From positions 42,634 through 106,633 of the forward strand of contig MFEL01000008.1 in assembly GCA_001777575.1 (NCBI GenBank): a stretch of DNA of 64,000 nt. Direction: 5' to 3'. The notes beneath the pieces were generated by a model. That model had not been told where the DNA came from and searched no databases. It saw only the letters and a program-made list of their open reading frames with translations. Each line of letters opens with the position of its first letter. Position 1 is the stretch's first letter. The translations under genes and the position numbers were made by a program. Source of the DNA: Candidatus Doudnabacteria bacterium RIFCSPHIGHO2_01_FULL_46_24 (GTDB lineage: Bacteria; Patescibacteriota; Doudnabacteria; UBA920; O2-02-FULL-48-8). Below are positions 28,444 through 64,000 of the stretch, piece by piece.

Positions 28444-28671
28444 ATGACACAAGCAGTAATTACGAAGATCAAATCAAACAGCATTTTACTGCCCAAAACA
28501 TGGAAGGGCAGCAAGGTTCTTTTACGCATCACTGACAACACTGCGACTATTACCAAGGTACCCAAGACAAGCAATATTTTTTCACTTCAAGAAATTAAAG
28601 CTTGGCGACGATTGGGCAAAAAGGTCGCCAAATCAACCCTAAATAAAGCCTTGGCAAAAGCTCGTGAATGA
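28444..28671 (+). CDS. Putative antitoxin (AbrB/MazE-like swapped-hairpin DNA-binding protein)
   Basis: 75 aa. Its stop overlaps the start of the PIN gene by 4 nt. Confidence 0.5.
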   Translation: MTQAVITKIKSNSILLPKTWKGSKVLLRITDNTATITKVPKTSNIFSLQEIKAWRRLGKKVAKSTLNKALAKARE

Positions 28672-29090
28672 AAATCTTTGCCGATACTAATGTTATAGTT
28701 TCCATGCTGCTCTGGGGAAAGTCCTTAGAGCAGCTTTTTGTCCTAATCAACGCTCGCAAGATAACTTTAGGCTTTTCGCCGGCGACAATCGAGGAATTGT
28801 TCCGTGTTGTCAATTATCCGCAAATAGCCAAACAAGCCCTTAAGCAGAATGTTGATGCCGAAGTCCTTGCCGATAAATTAGTTGCCGCTTCTGAAATTTG
28901 TTATCCAAGCAAAACATTTGACATTGTCGCTGATGATCCAAGCGATAATAAAATACTCGAAACAGCTCTGGAAGCCAAAGCCGAGTATATAATTTCTGGG
29001 GACAGGCATTTGCTGCAATTGAAAACTTTCGAAAAAATCCCAATTGTTACACCAGCAAAATTTCTAAAGCTTAATATCAACAATTTTTAA
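28668..29090 (+). CDS. PIN-domain toxin (VapC-like)
   Basis: MKIFADTNVI…DPSDNKILETAL…ISGDRHLL carries the conserved acidic residues of a PIN nuclease. Confidence 0.75.
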   Translation: MKIFADTNVIVSMLLWGKSLEQLFVLINARKITLGFSPATIEELFRVVNYPQIAKQALKQNVDAEVLADKLVAASEICYPSKTFDIVADDPSDNKILETALEAKAEYIISGDRHLLQLKTFEKIPIVTPAKFLKLNINNF

Positions 29091-37666: not shown

Positions 37667-38089
37667 TCAGCGATTCGAAATTAACGAATGGACATCCGAA
37701 TGATCCGAAACTACAAAATCCGGATTAAGAACCCTCTTGGGTTTAATAAAAGAGCCTCTGAAATTTACTATCAAACCAAGTTCTAAATTTGCCGCTTTAA
37801 GGTACCTCTGCATTTGGATATAATCTTCTTTGGTTATAAAAGTCTTTGCTTTGAAATCTACGAAAATTTTGCGCTCGACAAAAAAATCTACTTTGTTGCC
37901 TCTCGGCGAATTTTTGTTCAGTTTACTAATTTCGAACTCTCGCTCATATTCCCACTTTTCTTCTTTAAGTAACTCTTCAAATCTATCGCCATACTGCTTT
38001 TCTCTACAGAAACGTCCGAGCTCTTTCGCTACTCTAAAGCATAAACCACTAATCTTATAAGATAATTTTGCTTCAACTATTTTTGGCAT
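37667..38089 (-). CDS. GxxExxY family protein
   Basis: LSYKISGLCFRVAKELG…YGDRFEELL…ELGLIVNFRG matches the GxxExxY signature. Confidence 0.8.
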   Translation of the reverse strand: MPKIVEAKLSYKISGLCFRVAKELGRFCREKQYGDRFEELLKEEKWEYEREFEISKLNKNSPRGNKVDFFVERKIFVDFKAKTFITKEDYIQMQRYLKAANLELGLIVNFRGSFIKPKRVLNPDFVVSDHSDVHSLISNR

Positions 38090-42811: not shown

Positions 42812-43387
42812 TCAAACTTTTAATCCGAATTTTTTGAGCAAATCGTTTTGGAAATCCAGTTCCTGGACAATGGCAATCCTGACATATCGGTCAATTTCAT
42901 AAATTTCTTTCAAAAAATCTACTTCGTCTTCGCAAGGGTATGGGCATGCCCAGACGCTTTTTTGCATAGGATAAAACCCTATTTCCTTAAGCTGGCGAGT
43001 AAAATAATAGCTGTTTCGCTTGAACTGTTTGGGAATATCAAACATCACCAGGCGCCATTTTTTGTCCCAGGTTTTTTGCGGCTTAATTTGCATCTTGTCC
43101 ATTTTGAACTTCAAAAGTTTCTGCTTGCCATTCTTGGTCATTTTAATGACTGTCTTATGCCTTTCCTCGGTTATCGAAATCAGGTTCTGGTCTTCCATGC
43201 TCTTAAGTGAGCGCCGGATCTGCCACGGTTGATAACGTTTTTGTGTTTTGCCCAAAAAAGGAGCCAAGGCCATGGGCAGGCCAGGCAAGACCGCAACGGC
43301 AACCACAAACCCGGCTGCCGCGATTACGGTTAAAATCATTTTTATTATTTCCGCCTTGCTCCGTTTCTCTTTTTCCACTATTTGCAT
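42812..43387 (-). CDS. PaaX-family transcriptional regulator-like protein with an N-terminal TM helix
   Basis: WDKKWRLVMFDIP…TRQLKEIGFYPMQKSVWACP aligns with the PaaX WDGKWLLLL…KKQLIWQGFGALAPSLMASP segment. A winged-helix-like segment precedes it. Confidence 0.55.
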   Translation of the reverse strand: MQIVEKEKRSKAEIIKMILTVIAAAGFVVAVAVLPGLPMALAPFLGKTQKRYQPWQIRRSLKSMEDQNLISITEERHKTVIKMTKNGKQKLLKFKMDKMQIKPQKTWDKKWRLVMFDIPKQFKRNSYYFTRQLKEIGFYPMQKSVWACPYPCEDEVDFLKEIYEIDRYVRIAIVQELDFQNDLLKKFGLKV

Positions 43388-43921: not shown

Positions 43922-44896
43922 TCATTTCCTCTTGAGAACTTTTTTAACCGCGTTGAAAATTGCCTTGCCGTCCATGCCCCATTTGGCAATAAGTTCGTTG
44001 GGCTCGCCGCTCTCGCCGAAACTGTCCGGCATGCCTACGAATTCCTGCGGCACCGGAAAATTCCTGCTCAAAACTTCCGCAATTGCCGAGCCAACACCGC
44101 CGGTGATTTGGTGCTCTTCGGCTGAAACTATTGCGCCGGTTTTTTTGACTGATTCGATCAAGGTCCTTTCGTCCATGGGTTTGACTGAAACCATGTTCAA
44201 AACCTCGCACTCAATCCCCTCTTTGGCCAGTTCATTGGCGGCTTGAAGAGCGTAATAAACTTGCGGACCGGCAGCAGCAACGGTGCAATCCTTGCCCTCG
44301 CGGTAAACAAATGCTTTGCCGATTTCAAACGGCGTTTCATCCGTGGTAAATTGCGGAGTTTTTTCCCGCGCCAATCGGATATAGACCGGGCCTTGAATTT
44401 TTGCCGCGGCCACCGTTGCCTTGCGCGCCTCAATCGCGTCGCAAGGCACCAAAACCGTCATGCGCGGCAAAACCCGGGTAATGGCAATATCCTCAAGAGC
44501 TTGGTGAGTCGCGCCATCCGGGCCCACGGAAATGCCGGCGTGAGAGCCAATAATCTTGACATTGTTGCCGGAATAGCAAATTGCCACGCGAATCTGGTCC
44601 CAGTTCCGGCCGGGCGAAAAAACCGCATAAGAGGTGATAAAAGGAATTTTGCCTTCATGCGCCATGCCCGCGCCCAAGCCTGCCAGATTTTGTTCAGCCA
44701 CGCCAACCTCCACAAACCGATCCGGGTAGGCCTTGGCAAAATCCAAAGACCGCGTGGATTCAGTTAAATCGCAGCACAAAACCACTACATTGGGATTTTC
44801 TTTGCCCAAAATCAAAAGGCCGTCGCCGTATCCGTTGCGGATTGGAGCTTGTTTGATATCAGAGGAAAATAAATTGTCGGCTAATTTAACGCTCAT
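43922..44896 (-). CDS. Transketolase, C-terminal subunit (pyrimidine-binding and C-terminal domains)
   Basis: Full-length similarity to split transketolase subunit B. Confidence 0.85.
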   Translation of the reverse strand: MSVKLADNLFSSDIKQAPIRNGYGDGLLILGKENPNVVVLCCDLTESTRSLDFAKAYPDRFVEVGVAEQNLAGLGAGMAHEGKIPFITSYAVFSPGRNWDQIRVAICYSGNNVKIIGSHAGISVGPDGATHQALEDIAITRVLPRMTVLVPCDAIEARKATVAAAKIQGPVYIRLAREKTPQFTTDETPFEIGKAFVYREGKDCTVAAAGPQVYYALQAANELAKEGIECEVLNMVSVKPMDERTLIESVKKTGAIVSAEEHQITGGVGSAIAEVLSRNFPVPQEFVGMPDSFGESGEPNELIAKWGMDGKAIFNAVKKVLKRK

Positions 44897-44949: not shown

Positions 44950-45321
44950 CTATCCTTTTTTCAAGGTTAAAATACTAGCCGCTAGTATATTGGATAATTC
45001 TGTTACTTCTTTTAATAAAACTTCAAGCTTATTCTTATCAGCTAGATTAGCATCTCGCATTAGACCCAGCCAGAACTTAGTCTCGTTGGCAGACTTTAAC
45101 GCATGAGTGAAAAAATTGGCAAAATCTTTCCGTGTTCTGCCCGCTTGCGCTTCAATAATATTTGCCCCAATGCTAGTTGCGCTTCTCAAAACTTGTTTGG
45201 ACAAAACTTGACAACTTAGATCACGCTGATCGAGTATTTTTATTAACTTAATAATCTCAAGCGCAAAATTATACGCTCTGGTTTTTGTATCTATCTTAGA
45301 TTTTACTTCGCTGTTTTGCAT
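44950..45321 (-). CDS. Four-helix-bundle protein (23S rRNA intervening-sequence protein family)
   Basis: ATSIGANIIEAQ…FFTHALKSANETKFWL matches the four-helix-bundle family signature. Confidence 0.8.
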   Translation of the reverse strand: MQNSEVKSKIDTKTRAYNFALEIIKLIKILDQRDLSCQVLSKQVLRSATSIGANIIEAQAGRTRKDFANFFTHALKSANETKFWLGLMRDANLADKNKLEVLLKEVTELSNILAASILTLKKG

Positions 45322-45365: not shown

Positions 45366-46211
45366 CTACTCATGCTCGCTCCTAATCTTCCCTCCCAGGG
45401 TTCTTAATTCTTTCAAGGCTTCGTGGCCTTGCTTGCCATCTGGCGGGATGCCATGCCATTTGTAATCGTATTCCATAAAATCCACGCCCTTGCCAGGGAT
45501 AGTATGACAAATAATCAACGTCGGGTTTTCGGCAATGGCCTTGGCTTTGTTGCAGGCGTCAATAATTTCGCGGATATTATGTCCATCGACTTCAAGAACC
45601 GTCCAGCCGAACGCTTCATACTTTGCCCGCAAAGGCTCAAGCGGCATGACTTCCTCGGTATAGCCGTCAATCTGGATATTGTTGCGGTCCATCAAGGCCG
45701 TAAGGTTGCGTAAATTATTTTTGCCGGCAAACATGGCGGCTTCCCAAATCTGGCCTTCCTCCTGCTCGCCGTCAGACATGACGCAATACACCCGCCAAGG
45801 TTTGTGATCCATTTTAAGCCCCACATAAGCCATGCCCGCGGCTTGCGACAATCCTTGGCCCAAAGGGCCGGAAGAATTTTCCGCGCCCGGCAGAACCTCG
45901 TTGTGCGGATGGCCATGGAGTCGGGTACCGAGCTTTCGCAAAGTCGCTAGTTCATGATGCGGGAAAAATCCGGCATGCGCCAAAGTCGCGTACCACACCG
46001 GGCAAATATGGCCGCAAGACAACACAAACCGGTCCCGCTGGGGCCAGGCCGGATTTTGCGGATCATATTGCATGACGCCAAAATAAAGGGCCGTAAACAC
46101 GTCGGTCATACCCAAAGGTCCGGCCGAGTGCCCGGATTTGGCCGTGACCAGCATCTTGACGATGTCCTGCCGTATTTCGTTAGCTTTTTGTTCCAGTTCT
46201 CTAATATCCAT
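45366..46211 (-). CDS. Transketolase, N-terminal (TPP-binding) subunit
   Basis: TPP-binding GDG…N motif region. Confidence 0.85.
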   Translation of the reverse strand: MDIRELEQKANEIRQDIVKMLVTAKSGHSAGPLGMTDVFTALYFGVMQYDPQNPAWPQRDRFVLSCGHICPVWYATLAHAGFFPHHELATLRKLGTRLHGHPHNEVLPGAENSSGPLGQGLSQAAGMAYVGLKMDHKPWRVYCVMSDGEQEEGQIWEAAMFAGKNNLRNLTALMDRNNIQIDGYTEEVMPLEPLRAKYEAFGWTVLEVDGHNIREIIDACNKAKAIAENPTLIICHTIPGKGVDFMEYDYKWHGIPPDGKQGHEALKELRTLGGKIRSEHE

Positions 46212-49450: not shown

Positions 49451-49852
49451 TTATTTCGCGTCTAAATATTTTTGCAATATAATCTGAGCCGCAACATTAT
49501 CGATTATTTGTCTTTGTTTTTTATCATGCAAACCTTGAGAATGCAAAAGTTTCCGGGCCTCTACTGAACTGAAGCGTTCATCTGCTAGACTCTGCGGAAT
49601 TCCTGTTTCTCTTGATAACTTATCAGCGAAATTTTTTGTAAGCATTGCCGAATGCCCTTCGTTCCCGCTTGTTGTTTTAGGTATGCCGATTAGAATCCAA
49701 GCGACTTTGTAACGAGCGATAATATATTTGATTTCATTAATTGCCTTTTTGGTTTCTATAACCTTATCCAATGGAAATGCGATTTTACCGTCTTCATCTG
49801 AGATTGCAGCGCCTATTCTCTTACTCCCCCAATCCAAAGCCAATATCCTCAT
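49451..49852 (-). CDS. ruvX: Holliday-junction resolvase-like RuvX/YqgF
   Basis: ILALDWGSKRIGAAISD RNase H-like motif. Confidence 0.85.
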   Translation of the reverse strand: MRILALDWGSKRIGAAISDEDGKIAFPLDKVIETKKAINEIKYIIARYKVAWILIGIPKTTSGNEGHSAMLTKNFADKLSRETGIPQSLADERFSSVEARKLLHSQGLHDKKQRQIIDNVAAQIILQKYLDAK

Positions 49853-51130: not shown

Positions 51131-51895
51131 TTATACCATGTTTGTTAGCGTTTCACAACCGTTTTCCGTTACTATTACCGTATGTTCAAAATGCGCTGAG
51201 CGGCTCCCGTCAGCGGTTTTGACAGTCCAGCCGTCATCGGTAAATATCACTTTCCATGCCCCGGCGTTAATCATCGGCTCTATAGCCAGAACCATTCCCG
51301 AAACAAGTTTAGTTCCTGTGCCGCTTTTTCCATAACAAGGAACCTCAGGGTCCTCATGCACAGATTTTCCAACCCCGTGGCCGACCAACTCTCGAACAAC
51401 GTTGAATTTATTTTGCCGAGCTACTTCTTCGATCGTTTGCCCGATGTCACCGGTAAAATCGCCGGCCCTCACTTTGAGCGCTGTTTTAAGAGCGATCCGG
51501 GCGGTTTCAATAAGCCTTAATGATTCAATATCGACTTTCCCCACGGCAACGGTGACCGCCGCATCGGTGTAGAATCCCTGGTACACAACCCCCAAATCCA
51601 AACCAACAATGTCGCCTTGCCGCAAAATTTTATCCTTGCTGGGAATCCCATGCACGACCTCGTCATTTACCGACACGCATAAGCTTGCGGGAAAGGGTTT
51701 TTGGCCTTTCATGGAACTGTAATTCTTAAAAGCGGAGCAAGCGCCACTGCTTCTGATTTCCTGTTCCGCGATCTGGTCCAGCTCAAGAGCGGAAACCCCA
51801 GGCCTGACGTGCGCTTGCGCAATCGCCAAAGTTTTTGCAAGTATCCGGCCGGATTGCCTAAGCAGGTCAAGCTCTTTTGGATCGCTGGTAATCAT
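51131..51895 (-). CDS. map: Methionine aminopeptidase type I
   Basis: Full-length M24A similarity. Confidence 0.9.
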   Translation of the reverse strand: MITSDPKELDLLRQSGRILAKTLAIAQAHVRPGVSALELDQIAEQEIRSSGACSAFKNYSSMKGQKPFPASLCVSVNDEVVHGIPSKDKILRQGDIVGLDLGVVYQGFYTDAAVTVAVGKVDIESLRLIETARIALKTALKVRAGDFTGDIGQTIEEVARQNKFNVVRELVGHGVGKSVHEDPEVPCYGKSGTGTKLVSGMVLAIEPMINAGAWKVIFTDDGWTVKTADGSRSAHFEHTVIVTENGCETLTNMV

Positions 51896-52469
51896 GGATG
51901 GCTTTCTGGATATCTTGAGCGACTTTTTTAATACGCTGGTCGCCTTTAATAAATCGCAGTTTATTGATTGACTGAAAATATTTAATGCCCTTGTTGGTAT
52001 CGGGATTCTGCCATTGCATCCGCTTCTTTATATATGCGAGATTTGAATCGTCTTCGCGCTCATGTTTGGATAAGCGTTTTTTGAGCCGTCTGTACACTTC
52101 TCTTTCCGGCAATTTGATGAACAAAACAAAAAAATCCCGACGCTTCTCACTCAAAAGTTTTTTCAGCAACCAAGCCTCCGGCTTGAGTCTGGGATTGCCG
52201 ACAAAAATCAAATCACGATTTGAACTTACTGTACTGATTTGATTCTTTAGGAACTTTTTCATCAGAGGCACTGGCGTATATTGACCTCTGTTCATGGTTC
52301 TTCTCAGCCACCGGCCCTCGGCATTATTTTTTTTTGCCATTGCGCGCCAATGCTTGCCGGATTCAACCGGTTTGAGCGAATAACGCTCTTGCAAAATTCG
52401 GGCTTGGGTGTCTTTCCCAGACCCCGGGCCTCCAAGCAGCACTAAATCAAATCCGAGCCGTTCTTTCAT
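51867..52469 (-). CDS. Divergent adenylate-kinase-like NMP kinase (second paralog)
   Basis: GGPGSGKDTQ P-loop. Basic C-terminal extension. Confidence 0.55.
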   Translation of the reverse strand: MKERLGFDLVLLGGPGSGKDTQARILQERYSLKPVESGKHWRAMAKKNNAEGRWLRRTMNRGQYTPVPLMKKFLKNQISTVSSNRDLIFVGNPRLKPEAWLLKKLLSEKRRDFFVLFIKLPEREVYRRLKKRLSKHEREDDSNLAYIKKRMQWQNPDTNKGIKYFQSINKLRFIKGDQRIKKVAQDIQKAIHDYQRSKRA

Positions 52470-52474
52470 TCTGT

Positions 52475-53053
52475 TTACTGATTACTGATTACTAGTTTTT
52501 GCATTATTTCCCGATGCACGTCTTCAATCGGCTGGTCGCCGTTAATTTCCACCAGTTCGCCTTTGCTTTTGTAATGCTCTTTGATCAGGATGTTGCGCTT
52601 CTCGTATTCCTCGTACCTGTGACGGGCAATTTGGGGATCATCATCAGAACGGCCCTGTCCCCGGATGGTTATCCTTTTGACAACCTCTTCCTCGGATACA
52701 TTGAGAAAAACGATTCTTAGATCCTTAATTTTTATATCTTCCACTATCCTGTCCAGATCTTCTGCCTGGCCCATGGATAAGGGATACGTATCAAAAACCA
52801 CGGTGCCAGAGTCGGCAAGAGCCTTCAGCTTCCTGTCAAGAAGCATGCTGGCAATCGCATCGGGTTGCGGGGTCCCCTGGTCATAACGCGCCTTGGCTTC
52901 ATGCGCTTCATCGGAATTTTCTTGGATAAACTCTCTGATCAAATCACCCAAAACAATCCTGGGTGCCCCTAAAAATTTAGCCAATAATTCCGATTGCGTC
53001 CCCTTGCCGCTCCCCGGCGGCCCCAAAACCACAAATATTTTCTGTAACTTCAT
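52475..53053 (-). CDS. adk: Adenylate kinase
   Basis: Start reassigned to MKLQKIFVVLGPPGSGKGTQ (ATG at 53053). The canonical secY-adk-map arrangement is present. Confidence 0.85.
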   Translation of the reverse strand: MKLQKIFVVLGPPGSGKGTQSELLAKFLGAPRIVLGDLIREFIQENSDEAHEAKARYDQGTPQPDAIASMLLDRKLKALADSGTVVFDTYPLSMGQAEDLDRIVEDIKIKDLRIVFLNVSEEEVVKRITIRGQGRSDDDPQIARHRYEEYEKRNILIKEHYKSKGELVEINGDQPIEDVHREIMQKLVISNQ

Positions 53054-53131
53054 GCAAACATTATAGCTAAAAATTACAAATAAAAAAAGGCTTAAATAAG
53101 CCATTTCTAACACCTCACATGGATTGAGGCG

Positions 53132-59396: not shown

Positions 59397-60041
59397 TTAC
59401 GTTTTACTCTTGTCAAAGACTTCGCCCTTATTTATCCAAACCTTTACGCCGATCGTGCCGTAGGTCGTGTAGGCAGTGGCTTTGGCAAAATCAATATTTG
59501 CGCGCAGGGTGTGCAGGGGTAATTTTCCCTTCATCAACCGTTCCGACCGCGCAATGTCAGAACCGCCCAGCCTCCCGGCGACTTCCAGCTTGACGCCGAT
59601 GGCACCGGATTCCATAATCTGTTCAATTGAGCCTTTCATGGCTCTGCGGTAAGCAATCCGCTTCTCCAGCTGGTCGGCGATATTTTGGGCAATAACCTGG
59701 GCTTGCAAATTGATTTCTTTGACTTCCTCAATATTGATCTTAATGTCCAATTTCTTTCCCAGATGTCTGACGATCTTCTTCTTCAACTCGTCAACTCCAC
59801 CGCCGCCCTTACCGATAATCATGCCTGGTTTGACGGTTTTGATGGTCACGTTGACGGCTGCTCCAAAACGCTCGATATCAATGCGGACCACTCCGGCTTT
59901 TTTTAAAATGTTAAACAAAAACTGCCTAATCCTGGTGTCTTCTTCCAGATACTGAGAAAAATGAGTCTTTGTCAGCCAGCGCGATTTCCAAGTGTCGGTT
60001 ATTTTCAGCCTAAAGCTGTTGGCGTTAACCTTTTGTCCCAT
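59397..60041 (-). CDS. rpsC: 30S ribosomal protein S3
   Basis: Start reassigned to MGQKVNANSFRLKIT (ATG at 60041). KH domain. Confidence 0.9.
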   Translation of the reverse strand: MGQKVNANSFRLKITDTWKSRWLTKTHFSQYLEEDTRIRQFLFNILKKAGVVRIDIERFGAAVNVTIKTVKPGMIIGKGGGGVDELKKKIVRHLGKKLDIKINIEEVKEINLQAQVIAQNIADQLEKRIAYRRAMKGSIEQIMESGAIGVKLEVAGRLGGSDIARSERLMKGKLPLHTLRANIDFAKATAYTTYGTIGVKVWINKGEVFDKSKT

Positions 60042-60098: not shown

Positions 60099-60665
60099 TT
60101 ATTGCCCGCTCTTCCTGTTAAATAATCTTCGCTTCAAATCCACCAAATGCTTCTTGACCTTCTCTCCCGACTTCGGCGGCGTCTTCGCCTTCTGTTTTTC
60201 CACTTCTATCTTACCGGACATTTTTTCCTCAGGTTGTTTTGGTTCAGCCGCAACCGGAGCAGGACGAATGCTGAAGATCGATCGCTTTGTCTTTTTGGCT
60301 GTTCGAATTCTGGGCTCCAACAGAACAGAAATATGGCTTAAGCGTTTGCGCTCGATAAATCCCCGACCCTGGGCCCGGGGGGAGAGTTTTTTGATAACCG
60401 GACCGGCGTCTACCGTGATGGATTTAATGTACAAATCGTCCCTGTTCAATTCAAAGTTATGTACAGCATTGGCAATTGCCGAATTAATGACTTTGCTGAT
60501 CGGCTGGGCCGCTTTCTTGGATGAAAAGCGCAGTTGTTCCAAGGCTGTGTCCACTGGCGTTCGGCGGATCAAATCAGCGACCAGACGAAGCTTGCGCGGC
60601 GAGACATGAATGTATCGCGCGTAAGCTTTGACTTCCTTGATTTGCTGCTTTTCCTGTGCGGCCAT
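60099..60665 (-). CDS. rplV: 50S ribosomal protein L22 with a ~70-aa Lys-rich C-terminal extension
   Basis: L22 core (ARYIHVSPRKLRLVADLIR) plus a basic tail. Confidence 0.85.
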   Translation of the reverse strand: MAAQEKQQIKEVKAYARYIHVSPRKLRLVADLIRRTPVDTALEQLRFSSKKAAQPISKVINSAIANAVHNFELNRDDLYIKSITVDAGPVIKKLSPRAQGRGFIERKRLSHISVLLEPRIRTAKKTKRSIFSIRPAPVAAEPKQPEEKMSGKIEVEKQKAKTPPKSGEKVKKHLVDLKRRLFNRKSGQ

Positions 60666-60689: not shown

Positions 60690-61034
60690 TTACTTTTTAG
60701 CCTCAGGCTCGGGAGCTTTGGCCGCTTCCATTTGCCGTTTCTCCGCATCTACCGACGCGGCAGCCTCCTCTTTGGCCATGCGGCCGCCATGCCTGACAAA
60801 CTTTCGGGTGGGAGCGAACTCTCCCAATTTGTGTCCGACCATATTTTCATTCACGTTGACAGTGATAAAATTCTTGCCGTTGTGCACCAGAAAAGCCAAA
60901 CCAACCATCTCCGGAAAAATCGTAGAATCCCGGGACCAAGTCTTAATCTCGTTTTTTGAGCCAGGCCTAATTTTCTGGATTTTCGCCCAGAGTTTAGGAT
61001 CAATAAACGGACCTTTTTTAAGGGAACGTGACAT
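60690..61034 (-). CDS. rpsS: 30S ribosomal protein S19 (with a short acidic/Lys C-terminal extension)
   Basis: Start reassigned to [12 protein letters not shown] (ATG at 61034). Confidence 0.9.
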
Positions 61035-61042
61035 ATGGTTTG

Positions 61043-61876
61043 TTAATTCCTTCTCTTTACGATAAATTTCGAACTCGCCTTCTTGGGATTGCGGGTTTTG
61101 ACTCCCAAGGCATGCTTGCCCCAAGGCGTCTTCGGATATTTCAGGCCTATCGGGTTATGACCCTCGCCGCCCCCGTGGGGATGATCCACAGGGTTCATGG
61201 CCTTACCCCGCACGGTCGGCCGCCGGCCCATATGGCGCACTCTGCCGGCCTTGCCGATCCTAACATACATCCAATCGATATTGGAAACCTGGCCGACTGT
61301 CGCATAAGATTCAGACGAAACTTTCCGAATTTCTCCAGAAGGAAACTTCAATAACGTACTCTCACCTTCCGTGGCCACAATAATGGCATAACTGCCTGCT
61401 GATCGTGCAACGGAGCTTCCTTGTGTCCTGTCAATTTGGACATTGTGAACATAGGTGCCGACGGGGATATTTCTAAGCATCATTCGATTGCCCGCGCTAA
61501 CATCGGTGCGAGGAGCGGCAACAATTTCTGATCCGACTTTAAGTCCGTCAGGAGCCAAAATATAGCGCTTCTCTCCGTCTCGATAGGCCAATAGCGAGAT
61601 AAAGCCGCTGCGGGTTGGGTCATATTCCAAAGTTTGGACTTTGGCTGGGATATTCAGCTTGTCGGTGCGCAGAAAATCTACCACCCTTGCCTTCAATCTA
61701 TGCCCCCCACCTTGGTGGCGGACAGTAATTTTTCCCTGGTTATTGCGCCCTGCGTTTTTTTTGAAGGCCACGATCAAATTCTTGGGAGTCTTAACGCGTT
61801 TGTCCAAGACCGAATAATCGGTGACTGAATGAATCCTGCGTCCTGGGCTAGTTGGTTTATAAATCTTGATTGCCAT
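61043..61876 (-). CDS. rplB: 50S ribosomal protein L2
   Basis: Full-length L2 similarity (…[14 protein letters not shown]…). Confidence 0.95.
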
Positions 61877-61878
61877 GT

Positions 61879-62232
61879 TTAGACTCCTTCAATAAGGCCG
61901 GAAATTTTTTCTCCTGTTTTCAAGGTGACCACGGCTTTTTTCCAATCACCGGTTTGGCTCGTAGTCCGCCCTGTCCGCCGCGGCTTCCCCTTGCTATTGA
62001 TGATGTTTACCTTTACAACGTGGACATCATAAGTTTTTTCGACAGCCTGCCTGATTCCCAGCTTGTTTGCTGACTGGGAAACCTTAAACACGTATCTGCC
62101 ATTCTGGCCAAATGCAGTGGTTTTTTCCGATAAGTGGGCATTCTTCAAAATTCGAAAAGCACGGCCGGTGTCTTCTTTGGTTTTCTGTTCTGACCGCGTT
62201 TTGTCCACATCAGTCGGGGTCTCCTTGACCAT
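61879..62232 (-). CDS. rplW: 50S ribosomal protein L23 (start uncertain: ATG at 62232 or 62301; the ORF-track start at 62328 is TTG)
   Basis: Conserved L23 core (ILKNAHLSEKT…DWKKAVVTLKTGEKI). The upstream in-frame stretch is purine-rich and SD-like rather than protein-like. Confidence 0.65.
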   Translation of the reverse strand: MVKETPTDVDKTRSEQKTKEDTGRAFRILKNAHLSEKTTAFGQNGRYVFKVSQSANKLGIRQAVEKTYDVHVVKVNIINSKGKPRRTGRTTSQTGDWKKAVVTLKTGEKISGLIEGV

Positions 62233-62431
62233 ATCCAAAACATTTTCCCCCTGAACTACCTTGCTTCCCTTACCTCCCCTAATTTTACTTAACAGTCCCA
62301 TACCCAGTATATCAACTTTCAGATACAAACAGCTTCGCTGTTTGTATAAAATTAATTAACAATACTAATTTAGCAAACGCAACGACATTTAATCAATATT
62401 TATACGGATATTTCTAAAACTGAAAGTTGTA

Positions 62432-63067
62432 TTACTGGGCATAAGTCTTTTCTATTACTGTCAAAGCGTCTTTCAAAATAATCGGATCGTATTTCAATAA
62501 ATCAAAAATATTCAACTGGTTGGCTGCCAAAATTTTGGCATTGGGCAAATTCTTCCCCGCCCGCTCAAGTTCTCGATTGTGGGCTCCCAGGATCAAAATA
62601 TATTTTTTGCCCAAACCGGCCTTGTCGGCAATTGCAGAAAGTTTCCGCGAAAGATCTTTGGTTTTATTCGCGGCAATGCTATCCACCACTGCCAACTTAT
62701 TATCTTTGACTTTGTCGCTGAGAATCGTAAATAACGCTTTTCTAAAAATACTCTGGTTAAGCTTGATTGAAAAACTACGCCCCTTGGTTGGGCCAAAAGT
62801 GATACCCCCGCCCCGCCAAAGCGGCGAGCGAACAGAACCGGCCCGGGCTCGGCCGGTGCCTTTTTGCTTCCATGGTTTCTTGCCGCTGCCGGAAACTTCT
62901 CCGCGATTCTTAGTGTGGGCAATCGCCGACCGGGCATTGTTCCGCTGAGCCCTAAGTGCAAAATGCACCAAATTAACGTCAATTTTAGCCAAACCAAAAA
63001 CTGCCGGGTTCAAATCCGTTTCCGAGACTTTTTCACCTGTTTGGTTATAGACTGCCGTTTTTGCCAT
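62432..63067 (-). CDS. rplD: 50S ribosomal protein L4
   Basis: Start reassigned to MAKTAVYNQTG (ATG at 63067, 2 nt after the GDPD stop). Confidence 0.85.
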   Translation of the reverse strand: MAKTAVYNQTGEKVSETDLNPAVFGLAKIDVNLVHFALRAQRNNARSAIAHTKNRGEVSGSGKKPWKQKGTGRARAGSVRSPLWRGGGITFGPTKGRSFSIKLNQSIFRKALFTILSDKVKDNKLAVVDSIAANKTKDLSRKLSAIADKAGLGKKYILILGAHNRELERAGKNLPNAKILAANQLNIFDLLKYDPIILKDALTVIEKTYAQ

Positions 63068-63068
63068 A

Positions 63069-63737
63069 TCAATTATGGATAATATTGGGGTAATCGGTGC
63101 CAATCCCATCAACCCCCATCTCTTTCATGATTTCAAATTGATTAATATCGTTAATAACCCATGTCATAATTTTCATCTCAAGATTGTGGATAAATTTAAT
63201 ACGTTTGGAAGTAATCAAATCATGCCTGAGATTAATCGAATAGAATCTTAGAGAACGAAAAAATGGAAAGAGAAATATGTACAAATAATTTCTTTTTGGA
63301 CTAATAATCAAGGCTATTTTGATATTTCTATCCAAAGCTCTAATTTTTCTTAATACTCCTAACTTAAAAGAGGAAATTAAAACCTTAGATGGAAATCCCT
63401 TGATCTCTTCAAGTAATCGTTGTTCAAATCCCGTTTCCTTAACCTCCAAATTCAGAGGCATATGAATTTTATCAAGAACTTCCTTCAATAACGGTGTTGG
63501 GTAATTCACTTTCTGACTCAGAATCTGCAATTCTTCCCAGATAATCTCAGAGATTTTTCTTGGATCGTGATGGGTTCTTAGTAAATCTTCGTCGTGATGA
63601 ACGACGATGTACTTATCTTTAGTCGCTCTCAAATCCATTTCAATCACATCTACCCCTAATTCCTGTGCTTTTTTAAAAGAGCTGATTGTATTTTCTCGCT
63701 CCAATCCTCTAGCGCCCCGATGTCCGGTTATTTCCAT
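63069..63737 (-). CDS. Glycerophosphodiester phosphodiesterase (GDPD family)
   Basis: HRG…E…D GDPD N-terminal motif (ITGHRGARGLERENT, IEMDL, HHDEDL). Lower GC than the flanking r-protein genes. Confidence 0.8.
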   Translation of the reverse strand: MEITGHRGARGLERENTISSFKKAQELGVDVIEMDLRATKDKYIVVHHDEDLLRTHHDPRKISEIIWEELQILSQKVNYPTPLLKEVLDKIHMPLNLEVKETGFEQRLLEEIKGFPSKVLISSFKLGVLRKIRALDRNIKIALIISPKRNYLYIFLFPFFRSLRFYSINLRHDLITSKRIKFIHNLEMKIMTWVINDINQFEIMKEMGVDGIGTDYPNIIHN

Positions 63738-63740
63738 GCG

Positions 63741-64000
63741 CTAGACAGTTTGAATCTTAACGATGCCGCCTCTAGCCCCCGGTACCGCGCCTTTCACGGC
63801 AATCAAATTCCGCTCTGAGTCAACATCCACAACCTCTAAATTTCTGATGGTTCTGACCCCTCCCATCCTACTGGCCATTCTTAAACCCTTCCTGACGTGT
63901 TGTGGAAACCGGCCGCCAATGGCGCCCACAGCGCGCGGATGATCGTGTCCATGCGACGCTGGGGCCCCTTTAAAGCCGTATTTCTTAATAGGTCCGGCAA
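63741..64000 (-). CDS. rplC: 50S ribosomal protein L3 (C-terminal part; the N-terminus lies beyond the window end)
   Basis: C-terminal L3 similarity (…AVKGAVPGARGGIVKI). The reading frame stays open to the window edge. Confidence 0.8.
   Translation of the reverse strand, partial: AGPIKKYGFKGAPASHGHDHPRAVGAIGGRFPQHVRKGLRMASRMGGVRTIRNLEVVDVDSERNLIAVKGAVPGARGGIVKIQTV

Follow-up and report, generated by a model that had tools for sequence, protein, structure and literature searches.

Few gene orders in bacteria are as stable as that of the S10 operon, which in its canonical form runs rpsJ-rplC-rplD-rplW-rplB-rpsS-rplV-rpsC-rplP-rpmC-rpsQ. Doudnabacteria are ultrasmall bacteria, and here we describe a gene for a glycerophosphodiester phosphodiesterase (GDPD) that lies within this operon, between rplC and rplD, in Candidatus Doudnabacteria bacterium RIFCSPHIGHO2_01_FULL_46_24. 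It was found in a 64,000-nucleotide stretch of contig MFEL01000008.1 (assembly GCA_001777575.1), which we shall call the window. In the extract of a comparative study of Gammaproteobacteria and Bacilli drawn on here, insertions are placed between operons or inside rpoBC, and none within S10 (PMC8046335).

Enzymes of the GDPD family are known in bacteria that take up lipids, and in lipid turnover at the membrane. [quoted passage not shown] LpgD of Staphylococcus aureus, a lysophosphatidylglycerol phospholipase D, has an N-terminal transmembrane anchor and a long hydrophobic helix α6 that together with loop L7 forms the groove for the acyl chain (PMC10404611). Bacteria that belong to the Candidate Phyla Radiation (CPR) have been reported to lack complete lipid biosynthesis and appear to get their lipids, abundant lysolipids among them, from neighbouring cells. 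Lysolipids are reported to be enriched in CPR cell fractions, and some CPR have PlsC/PlsY without PlsX (PMC7242380).

We found no description in the literature of a GDPD in an S10 operon or in Doudnabacteria, and none of this arrangement in CPR. The enzyme family and the operon are both known. The genomes have been made public, and the protein has no more than a generic annotation: its protein cluster carries the label Candidatus Doudnabacteria and includes accessions such as OGE81476.1, under the names "hypothetical protein" or "GP-PDE domain-containing protein". The novelty lies in a GDPD combined with the S10 operon, in the retention of this arrangement throughout a clade, and in changes to the enzyme that are specific to the clade.

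A GDPD gene in the S10 operon

The GDPD gene occupies positions 63069-63737 on the minus strand, and encodes 222 amino acids from an ATG at 63737-63735 to a TGA at 63071-63069, with no signal peptide or transmembrane anchor. On its upstream side is the 3' part of rplC (63741-64000, minus strand; Pfam Ribosomal_L3), encoding the C-terminal ~85 amino acids of L3 and terminating in a TAG at 63743-63741; the end of the window at 64000 truncates L3. The two genes are separated by 3 nucleotides (63738-63740, minus strand), reading CGC on the coding strand. On the downstream side a single nucleotide (63068, minus strand) lies between the TGA and the ATG (63067-63065) of rplD (62432-63067, minus strand), which encodes L4 of 211 amino acids (Pfam Ribosomal_L4, E = 1e-54). 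A preliminary description of this DNA, made from the sequence, had placed a complete GDPD gene between L3 and L4 with junctions of 1-3 nucleotides, and this is what we observe.

The open reading frames (ORFs) of the S10-operon region, including that of the GDPD, are all on the minus strand. In a locus with identical DNA (L176) the full L3 is 186 amino acids in length and comes after S12, S7, EF-G, EF-Tu and S10. Downstream of rpsC come L16, L29 and S17, and then the spc genes, according to the ORFs and to the table of genes and Pfam matches for L176. When the ORFs of the window and of the identical L176 are taken together, the order S10-L3-L4-L23-L2-S19-L22-S3-L16-L29-S17 on one strand is the canonical one, and the GDPD between L3 and L4 is the sole departure from it.

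The active site and fold of the enzyme

The Pfam GDPD profile (PF03009) spans the whole ORF, with residues 6-218 aligned to positions 1-243 of the 244 in the profile, scoring 128.7 bits where 23.6 is the cut-off (E = 5e-37). The best sequence matches in the Protein Data Bank are 2pz0 and 4oec, and the catalytic residues can be placed by alignment with 2pz0. The HR motif, comprising the catalytic histidine and a phosphate-binding arginine, is His6-Arg7 (codons 63717-63722, minus strand), aligned to H17 and R18. The E-x-D metal ligands are in Glu33-Met34-Asp35 (63633-63641, minus strand), aligned to E44 and D46; the second catalytic histidine is His48 (63594-63596, minus strand), aligned to H59. 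The third metal ligand and the conserved lysine are in Glu98-Val99-Lys100 (63438-63446, minus strand), aligned to E119-x-K121. H6, R7, E33, D35, H48 and K100 are invariant in 24 sequences of the clade and E98 is at least 90% conserved, in an alignment where the mean column identity is only 53%. His6-Arg7 is also invariant in archaeal-type relatives.

An AlphaFold2 model built on the clade sequences is a TIM barrel of eight β/α units, with a pLDDT of 95.4 and a pTM of 0.92. The best structural match found with Foldseek is 2pz0, the GDPD of T. tengcongensis (E = 7.7e-20, TM score 0.87). The top matches include the small GDPDs 2pz0, 1v8e, 1o1z, 7e0v and 4oec, and nearly all of those listed have the GDPD fold. 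The N-terminus of the protein is strand β1 itself (M-E-I-T-G-H-R-G), with no leader. Since the sequence begins at β1 without signal peptide or anchor, the protein is predicted to be cytoplasmic.

A degenerate pseudogene had been named in the preliminary description as something that would overturn it. The gene is of full length, the catalytic and metal-binding residues are conserved through the 24 clade sequences, and the fold is predicted with confidence; a decaying pseudogene is thus ruled out. We conclude, from the sequence together with the model, that the ORF is a full-length minimal (UgpQ-sized) GDPD that is predicted to be catalytically competent and to cut glycerophosphodiesters.

Conservation of the arrangement and its origin

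The gene order is not a product of assembly. At least 24 contigs, drawn from several samples and sources and including GCA_001777815.1, carry the same L3-GDPD-L4 DNA. Positions 62395-64000 are identical between the window and contigs of other samples and sources, and the sole difference in this region between the window and GCA_001777815.1 is a one-nucleotide insertion or deletion in the rplD-rplW spacer, near 62394. An erroneous join of contigs was the other ground on which the preliminary description could have fallen. It is excluded by the identical region on contigs of different samples and sources, and by the conserved order in divergent relatives. An artefact, whether chimeric assembly or pseudogene, would have in its favor only the abrupt drop of GC content at the gene borders, and set against the identical contigs, the conserved order, the intact frame and active site and the confident predicted fold, it is scarcely credible.

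The closest homologues of the GDPD are 40-58% identical to it. In all ten members of the subfamily that were looked up, the gene lies between L3 and L4. The arrangement had been called a rare lineage-specific insertion that a comparison of synteny and a phylogeny of the GDPD might check; both were carried out, and both uphold it. Among the matches listed, ~78 other loci (mostly Patescibacteria) have no GDPD between L3 and L4. In a neighbor-joining (NJ) tree of L4 and L3 that includes 80 other loci, mostly Patescibacteria, the eight carriers group as a single clade in 199 of 200 bootstraps, and the GDPDs of the carriers likewise form one clade against their nearest outside relatives in all 200 bootstraps. 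A locus from a metagenome-assembled genome labelled Doudnabacteria (L017) has no GDPD between L3 and L4, and falls outside the carrier clade.

In the sample covered, unrelated GDPD genes do not have this context. None of 80 metagenome GDPD loci among the matches listed adjoins L3 or L4, these being distant sequences of at most 38% identity; a scan with the clade alignment gave no further members of the clade. The loci without the insertion are a sample and not a census, and the scan with L4 missed true close relatives, in which L4 is 63-67% identical. The relatives of the clade GDPDs outside the clade are 33-39% identical, many are labelled Bathyarchaeota, and they lie in unrelated contexts.

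For seven carriers with enough sequence the ribosomal proteins are 62-84% identical and the GDPDs 42-62%. The distances between GDPDs and those between ribosomal proteins co-vary (Mantel r = 0.73, exact p = 0.011), and the nearest relatives of the window GDPD belong to the nearest relatives of the window in ribosomal proteins. Among the carriers sampled we have seen none in which the GDPD has been lost. An invariant active site, and a position that has persisted in all the sampled lineages despite their deep divergence, speak for selection on the enzyme. The simplest reading of these sequences is that the gene was captured once, between rplC and rplD, in an ancestor of this Doudnabacteria clade, and was then inherited vertically in place.

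In one carrier lineage the S10 operon holds another, unrelated insertion. A gene for a 181-residue PsbP_2-like protein (Pfam E = 6.7e-8) lies between rplB and rpsS in the GDPD carrier L004 (GCA_001780035.1, 6479-7024), and also in L005 and L006. In L004 its GC content is 0.40, against ~0.51-0.54 for its neighbours. As this is the second non-ribosomal insert, the S10 operon seems to be unusually tolerant of insertion in the carrier group. Long intervals between L3 and L4 were also seen in two other CPR loci, L053 (2978-3491, ~0.5-0.7 kb) and L062 (1667-3497, ~1.8-1.9 kb). These two intervals comprise a long acidic, lysine-rich C-terminal tail of L3, non-coding DNA and small ORFs on the opposite strand, with no recognizable enzyme.

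Base composition

The GDPD gene was first noted as richer in AT than the flanking ribosomal protein genes, and the difference is a large one. Its GC content is 0.345, with a GC content at third codon positions (GC3) of 0.35, compared with 0.46-0.55 and 0.49-0.59 respectively for the flanking genes. It is the lowest in GC of the 72 ORFs in the window (mean 0.474, s.d. 0.042), lying ~3 s.d. below the mean, and the GC content falls abruptly at the borders of the gene. In the other carriers measured, the GDPD is also lower in GC than both flanking genes, by only 0.01-0.12. In a low-GC relative (L175) it is equal to L4, and the GC3 of the GDPD is 0.36. The codon adaptation index, with the ribosomal proteins as reference, was uninformative: this genome shows little codon bias (mean 0.72, s.d. 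0.04), and of 71 genes the eight with the lowest values do not include the GDPD.

Three other ORFs are markedly low in GC (0.35-0.39). These encode a PDDEXK_3 nuclease (37667-38089) directly downstream of the gene for a class-II fructose-bisphosphate aldolase, a PIN-domain protein (28668-29090) on the opposite strand, and RuvX (49451-49852), a core gene that lies between a GalT-like gene and a gene for an HtrA-like protease. Together with the GDPD they make up a distinct compositional class in the window.

Low GC content is not proof of foreign origin, because the core gene RuvX is equally low. Nor does AT-richness mark the gene as newly arrived, since the arrangement is older than divergences across which the ribosomal proteins are only 62-84% identical. 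A recent horizontal insertion as the source of the low GC is therefore rejected, the L3-GDPD-L4 order being ancient. Either a drift towards AT where constraint is weaker, or replacement by the homologous gene of an unsampled low-GC relative, would fit the composition.

It could be supposed that the position of the gene has no functional meaning, either because it landed there by chance and was frozen in place as translation of L4 came to depend on it and its removal would harm the operon, or because it was recently replaced by the copy of a low-GC relative. The GDPD has the lowest GC of the window, and most of the other low-GC ORFs there (PDDEXK_3, 23S_rRNA_IVP and PIN) are small and of accessory or mobile type. 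In keeping with this the GDPD evolves faster than its neighbours, as seen in the identities above, a PsbP-like gene has entered between rplB and rpsS in another carrier lineage, and the GDPD of the low-GC relative L175 has a similar GC3. However, a frozen accident sits poorly with an invariant active site and a position kept in every lineage sampled with no loss seen among carriers. Replacement from a distant source is opposed by the co-variation of GDPD and ribosomal protein distances and by the agreement of nearest relatives, and the core gene RuvX, equally low in GC, shows that low GC need not mean foreign origin. We consider a meaningless position improbable.

Expression and probable translational coupling

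We found no σ70-like promoter and no site resembling an intrinsic terminator on the coding strand in or beside the GDPD gene. No motif of Shine-Dalgarno type precedes the start of the GDPD or that of L4, including in the rplC-GDPD spacer. A search with Rfam at its gathering thresholds detected no RNA family anywhere in the 64 kb, whether tRNA, rRNA, riboswitch or ribosomal protein leader.

Given the lack of a promoter- or terminator-like site of its own, and stop and start codons that abut or overlap, the GDPD gene is probably co-transcribed with the S10 operon and translationally coupled from L3 through to L4. The single nucleotide between the GDPD stop codon and the L4 start codon makes this a candidate termination-reinitiation junction, and ribosomes would pass from L3 to the GDPD to L4 by termination and reinitiation. 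The gene would be transcribed with the operon, and by the combination of co-transcription with the passage of ribosomes from L3 to L4, synthesis of the enzyme would be tied to the production of ribosomes, and so to growth.

The junctions are similarly close in most of the relatives. In other carriers the L3-GDPD junction is 0-3 nucleotides or an overlap, except in L001 where it is 142 nucleotides, and the GDPD-L4 junction is 1-2 nucleotides or an overlap of 8 nucleotides (L004 and L007). Tight coupling to L3 is therefore not universal, as the gap in L001 shows.

The lid, helix α6 and the function of the enzyme

A small active-site lid or insertion element of ~22 residues lies between β2 and α2 in the clade alignment (residues 55-76; 63510-63575, minus strand). 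The window protein and the archaeal-type relatives have kept it, but two separate subgroups of the clade, with proteins of 195-203 amino acids, have a deletion here. Because these short forms make two separate groups in the NJ tree, the lid has been lost at least twice. The lid-less enzymes (in the clade sequences P0001-P0024, alignment columns ~65-90) are among the smallest GDPDs that we have seen.

The segment comprising loop 6 and helix α6 (residues 146-166, SPKRNYLYIFLFPFFRSLRFY; 63240-63302, minus strand) lies on the catalytic face of the barrel, and is lengthened and strongly hydrophobic and aromatic. Its mean length is 21.5 residues in the 24 clade members and 17.6 in 94 other relatives (Mann-Whitney p = 3e-15), and the mean number of hydrophobic residues (F, W, Y, L, I, V or M) is 10.9 in the clade compared with 4.7 in the same 94 relatives (Mann-Whitney p = 4e-11). 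One example of the hydrophobic helix in the clade reads YLYIFLFPFF. In the AlphaFold2 model there are helices at residues 152-155 and 157-163 of this segment, and the lowest internal pLDDT of the protein is found there.

We propose that the substrates of the enzyme would be glycerophosphodiesters that come from scavenged host phospholipids, and that it would cleave their phosphodiester bond to give sn-glycerol-3-phosphate and the alcohol of the head group. A cell without de novo lipid building would in this way gain glycerol-phosphate backbone, carbon and phosphate in proportion to growth. By analogy with lipid-scavenging bacteria, the locus may well encode a cytoplasmic GDPD that draws on scavenged glycerophosphodiesters to provide glycerol-3-phosphate in amounts proportional to growth, and our confidence in this is about even. 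The link to lipid scavenging and the lipid auxotrophy of CPR are taken from the CPR literature (PMC7242380), and not from the content of the window.

Several observations weigh against the supply of glycerol-3-phosphate from small diesters. Among the ~45 annotated proteins of the window there is no Ugp or GlpT transporter, no PlsY or PlsC, and no GpsA or GlpD. The NCBIfam equivalog model for the UgpQ type (NF006989) gives 69.8 bits where the cut-off is 264, which is not reached. The proposal leaves the very low GC content of the gene unexplained. Co-transcription and coupling, which would make the supply proportional to growth, are inferred from the spacing of the genes alone, and the gap of L001 departs from that spacing. 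Finally, an enzyme acting on small soluble diesters would not be expected to have a hydrophobic α6 or to lose its lid repeatedly.

These last features are the starting point for the main alternative, in which the protein would be a lysophospholipase D at the inner face of the membrane in the manner of LpgD. It would take the head group off scavenged lysophospholipids, leaving lysophosphatidic acid for re-acylation by PlsC, with the same operon logic, and a lipid-auxotrophic cell would gain an entry point from which to rebuild phospholipids from host lysolipids. The lengthened and very hydrophobic loop 6 and α6 are consistent with this, and loss of the lid would admit bulkier substrates. So too are the enrichment of lysolipids in CPR and the presence of PlsC/PlsY without PlsX in some of them (PMC7242380), and the N-terminal third of the protein matches the NCBIfam LpgD model (NF053857) with E = 8e-12. 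However, only residues 3-74 match that model, and the score of the whole protein is 45 bits where the cut-off is 450. LpgD itself (8ghh) is only at rank 36 in the Foldseek search, with a TM score of 0.79, behind many GDPDs that act on soluble substrates. The window protein is without the N-terminal membrane anchor of LpgD (PMC10404611), burial or a place at an oligomer interface could also account for the hydrophobic helix, and the CPR lysolipids that have been reported had betaine head groups and not phosphodiesters (PMC7242380). We regard a lysophospholipase D as possible but rather unlikely. That such an enzyme, peripheral to the membrane and made at the level of ribosomal proteins, would be the missing entry step for rebuilding of CPR membranes in step with growth, with α6 and the loss of the lid as adaptations to a lipid substrate, we think doubtful. 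Since the protein is far below the cut-offs of both equivalog models, it is a member of the family and not an orthologue of a characterized enzyme.

The location might alternatively point to a role in translation, with the protein acting as a phosphodiesterase, either on RNA or on a translation factor that bears a glycerophosphoryl modification, or else as a factor associated with the ribosome. All that speaks for this is the conserved and tightly coupled location amid ribosomal genes, shortly downstream of tuf and fusA. All the features of the protein are canonical for a metal-dependent GDPD acting on esters of glycerol phosphate, there is no RNA-binding domain or basic extension, and no precedent was found in the literature. 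A translational role is accordingly very improbable.

A metabolic enzyme fixed in the S10 operon across a deep clade, with stop and start codons that abut or overlap, would be a clear example of a non-ribosomal activity tied to the output of ribosomes. The GDPD can be cloned and is probably highly expressed, making it a candidate for the processing of scavenged lipids by lipid-auxotrophic CPR episymbionts. The L3-GDPD-L4 arrangement is in addition a convenient synteny marker for this clade of Doudnabacteria.

Neighbouring genes and other features of the window

Beyond rplD the operon continues on the minus strand with rplW (61879-62328), rplB (61043-61876), rpsS (60690-61034), rplV (60099-60665) and rpsC (59397-60041). 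The Pfam Ribosomal_L23 domain covers residues 60-142 of L23, leaving an N-terminal extension of ~60 amino acids whose start codon is uncertain, and the gene calls for rplW in relatives vary from 89 to 150 amino acids. The rplD-rplW spacer (62329-62431, minus strand) is AT-rich (GC 0.35), and its 103 nucleotides contrast with the junctions of 1-3 nucleotides elsewhere. A perfect 9-bp hairpin, ACAAACAGC-ttc-GCTGTTTGT (plus strand, 62325-62345), overlaps a possible TTG start of the extended L23.

A single adenylate kinase gene is usual between secY and map. In the spc region of the window there are two in tandem at this position (51867-52469 and 52475-53113), both matching Pfam ADK. Transketolase is encoded as two genes, one for the N-terminal half (45366-46211) and one for the pyrimidine-binding and C-terminal half (43922-44896), and between them is a low-GC (0.36) gene of the 23S rRNA-intervening-sequence family (44950-45321). 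Between genes of the pentose phosphate pathway and of glycolysis, positions 42812-43387 encode a protein of 191 amino acids whose central domain is Cas2-like and of PaaX type (Pfam PaaX_M, E = 6e-18); there is no CRISPR context among the annotated ORFs near it.

Comparison with known systems

The best matches of the window GDPD in sequence and structure are the small cytoplasmic GDPDs of the E. coli UgpQ type, including those of T. tengcongensis (2PZ0), T. maritima (1O1Z), T. thermophilus (1V8E) and P. furiosus (7E0V). They have in common a single TIM-barrel domain of ~220-250 amino acids, the lack of a signal peptide, and the H-R, E-x-D, H and E-x-K residues. However, the window GDPD is only 22-29% identical to these enzymes and under the NCBIfam equivalog cut-off, its clade has the lengthened hydrophobic α6, and in many members of the clade the lid is deleted. 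Its gene lies in the S10 operon, in contrast to the phosphate- or glycerol-regulated ugp or glp operon of the UgpQ type.

The nearest relatives outside the clade in a word-indexed search are the Bathyarchaeota-type GDPDs (for example P0087 of Candidatus Bathyarchaeum, and P0043), with 33-39% identity. They are of equal length and retain the lid. Unlike the clade enzymes they are encoded outside ribosomal operons, P0087 beside the genes for NAD kinase and AdoMet synthase, and P0025 beside those for a cupin and TrmB. Their α6 is short and polar (AKHKNPLKAALELKAQ), whereas that of the window clade is long and hydrophobic.

With S. aureus LpgD (8GHH; PMC10404611) the window protein shares the GDPD fold, the canonical active-site residues and a longer hydrophobic α6. 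It differs in having no N-terminal membrane helix and a weak match to the model, and in being structurally nearer to the soluble GDPDs. The likeness of α6 is analogous, and we treat it as a lead only. GlpQ of M. pneumoniae (PMC3178575) is the GDPD of a lipid-scavenging bacterium with a reduced genome. Its genomic context is different, and the likeness is purely one of physiological analogy.

Compared with the canonical S10 operon, the same genes occur here, following tuf, in the same order, but with the gene of an enzyme intercalated between rplC and rplD.

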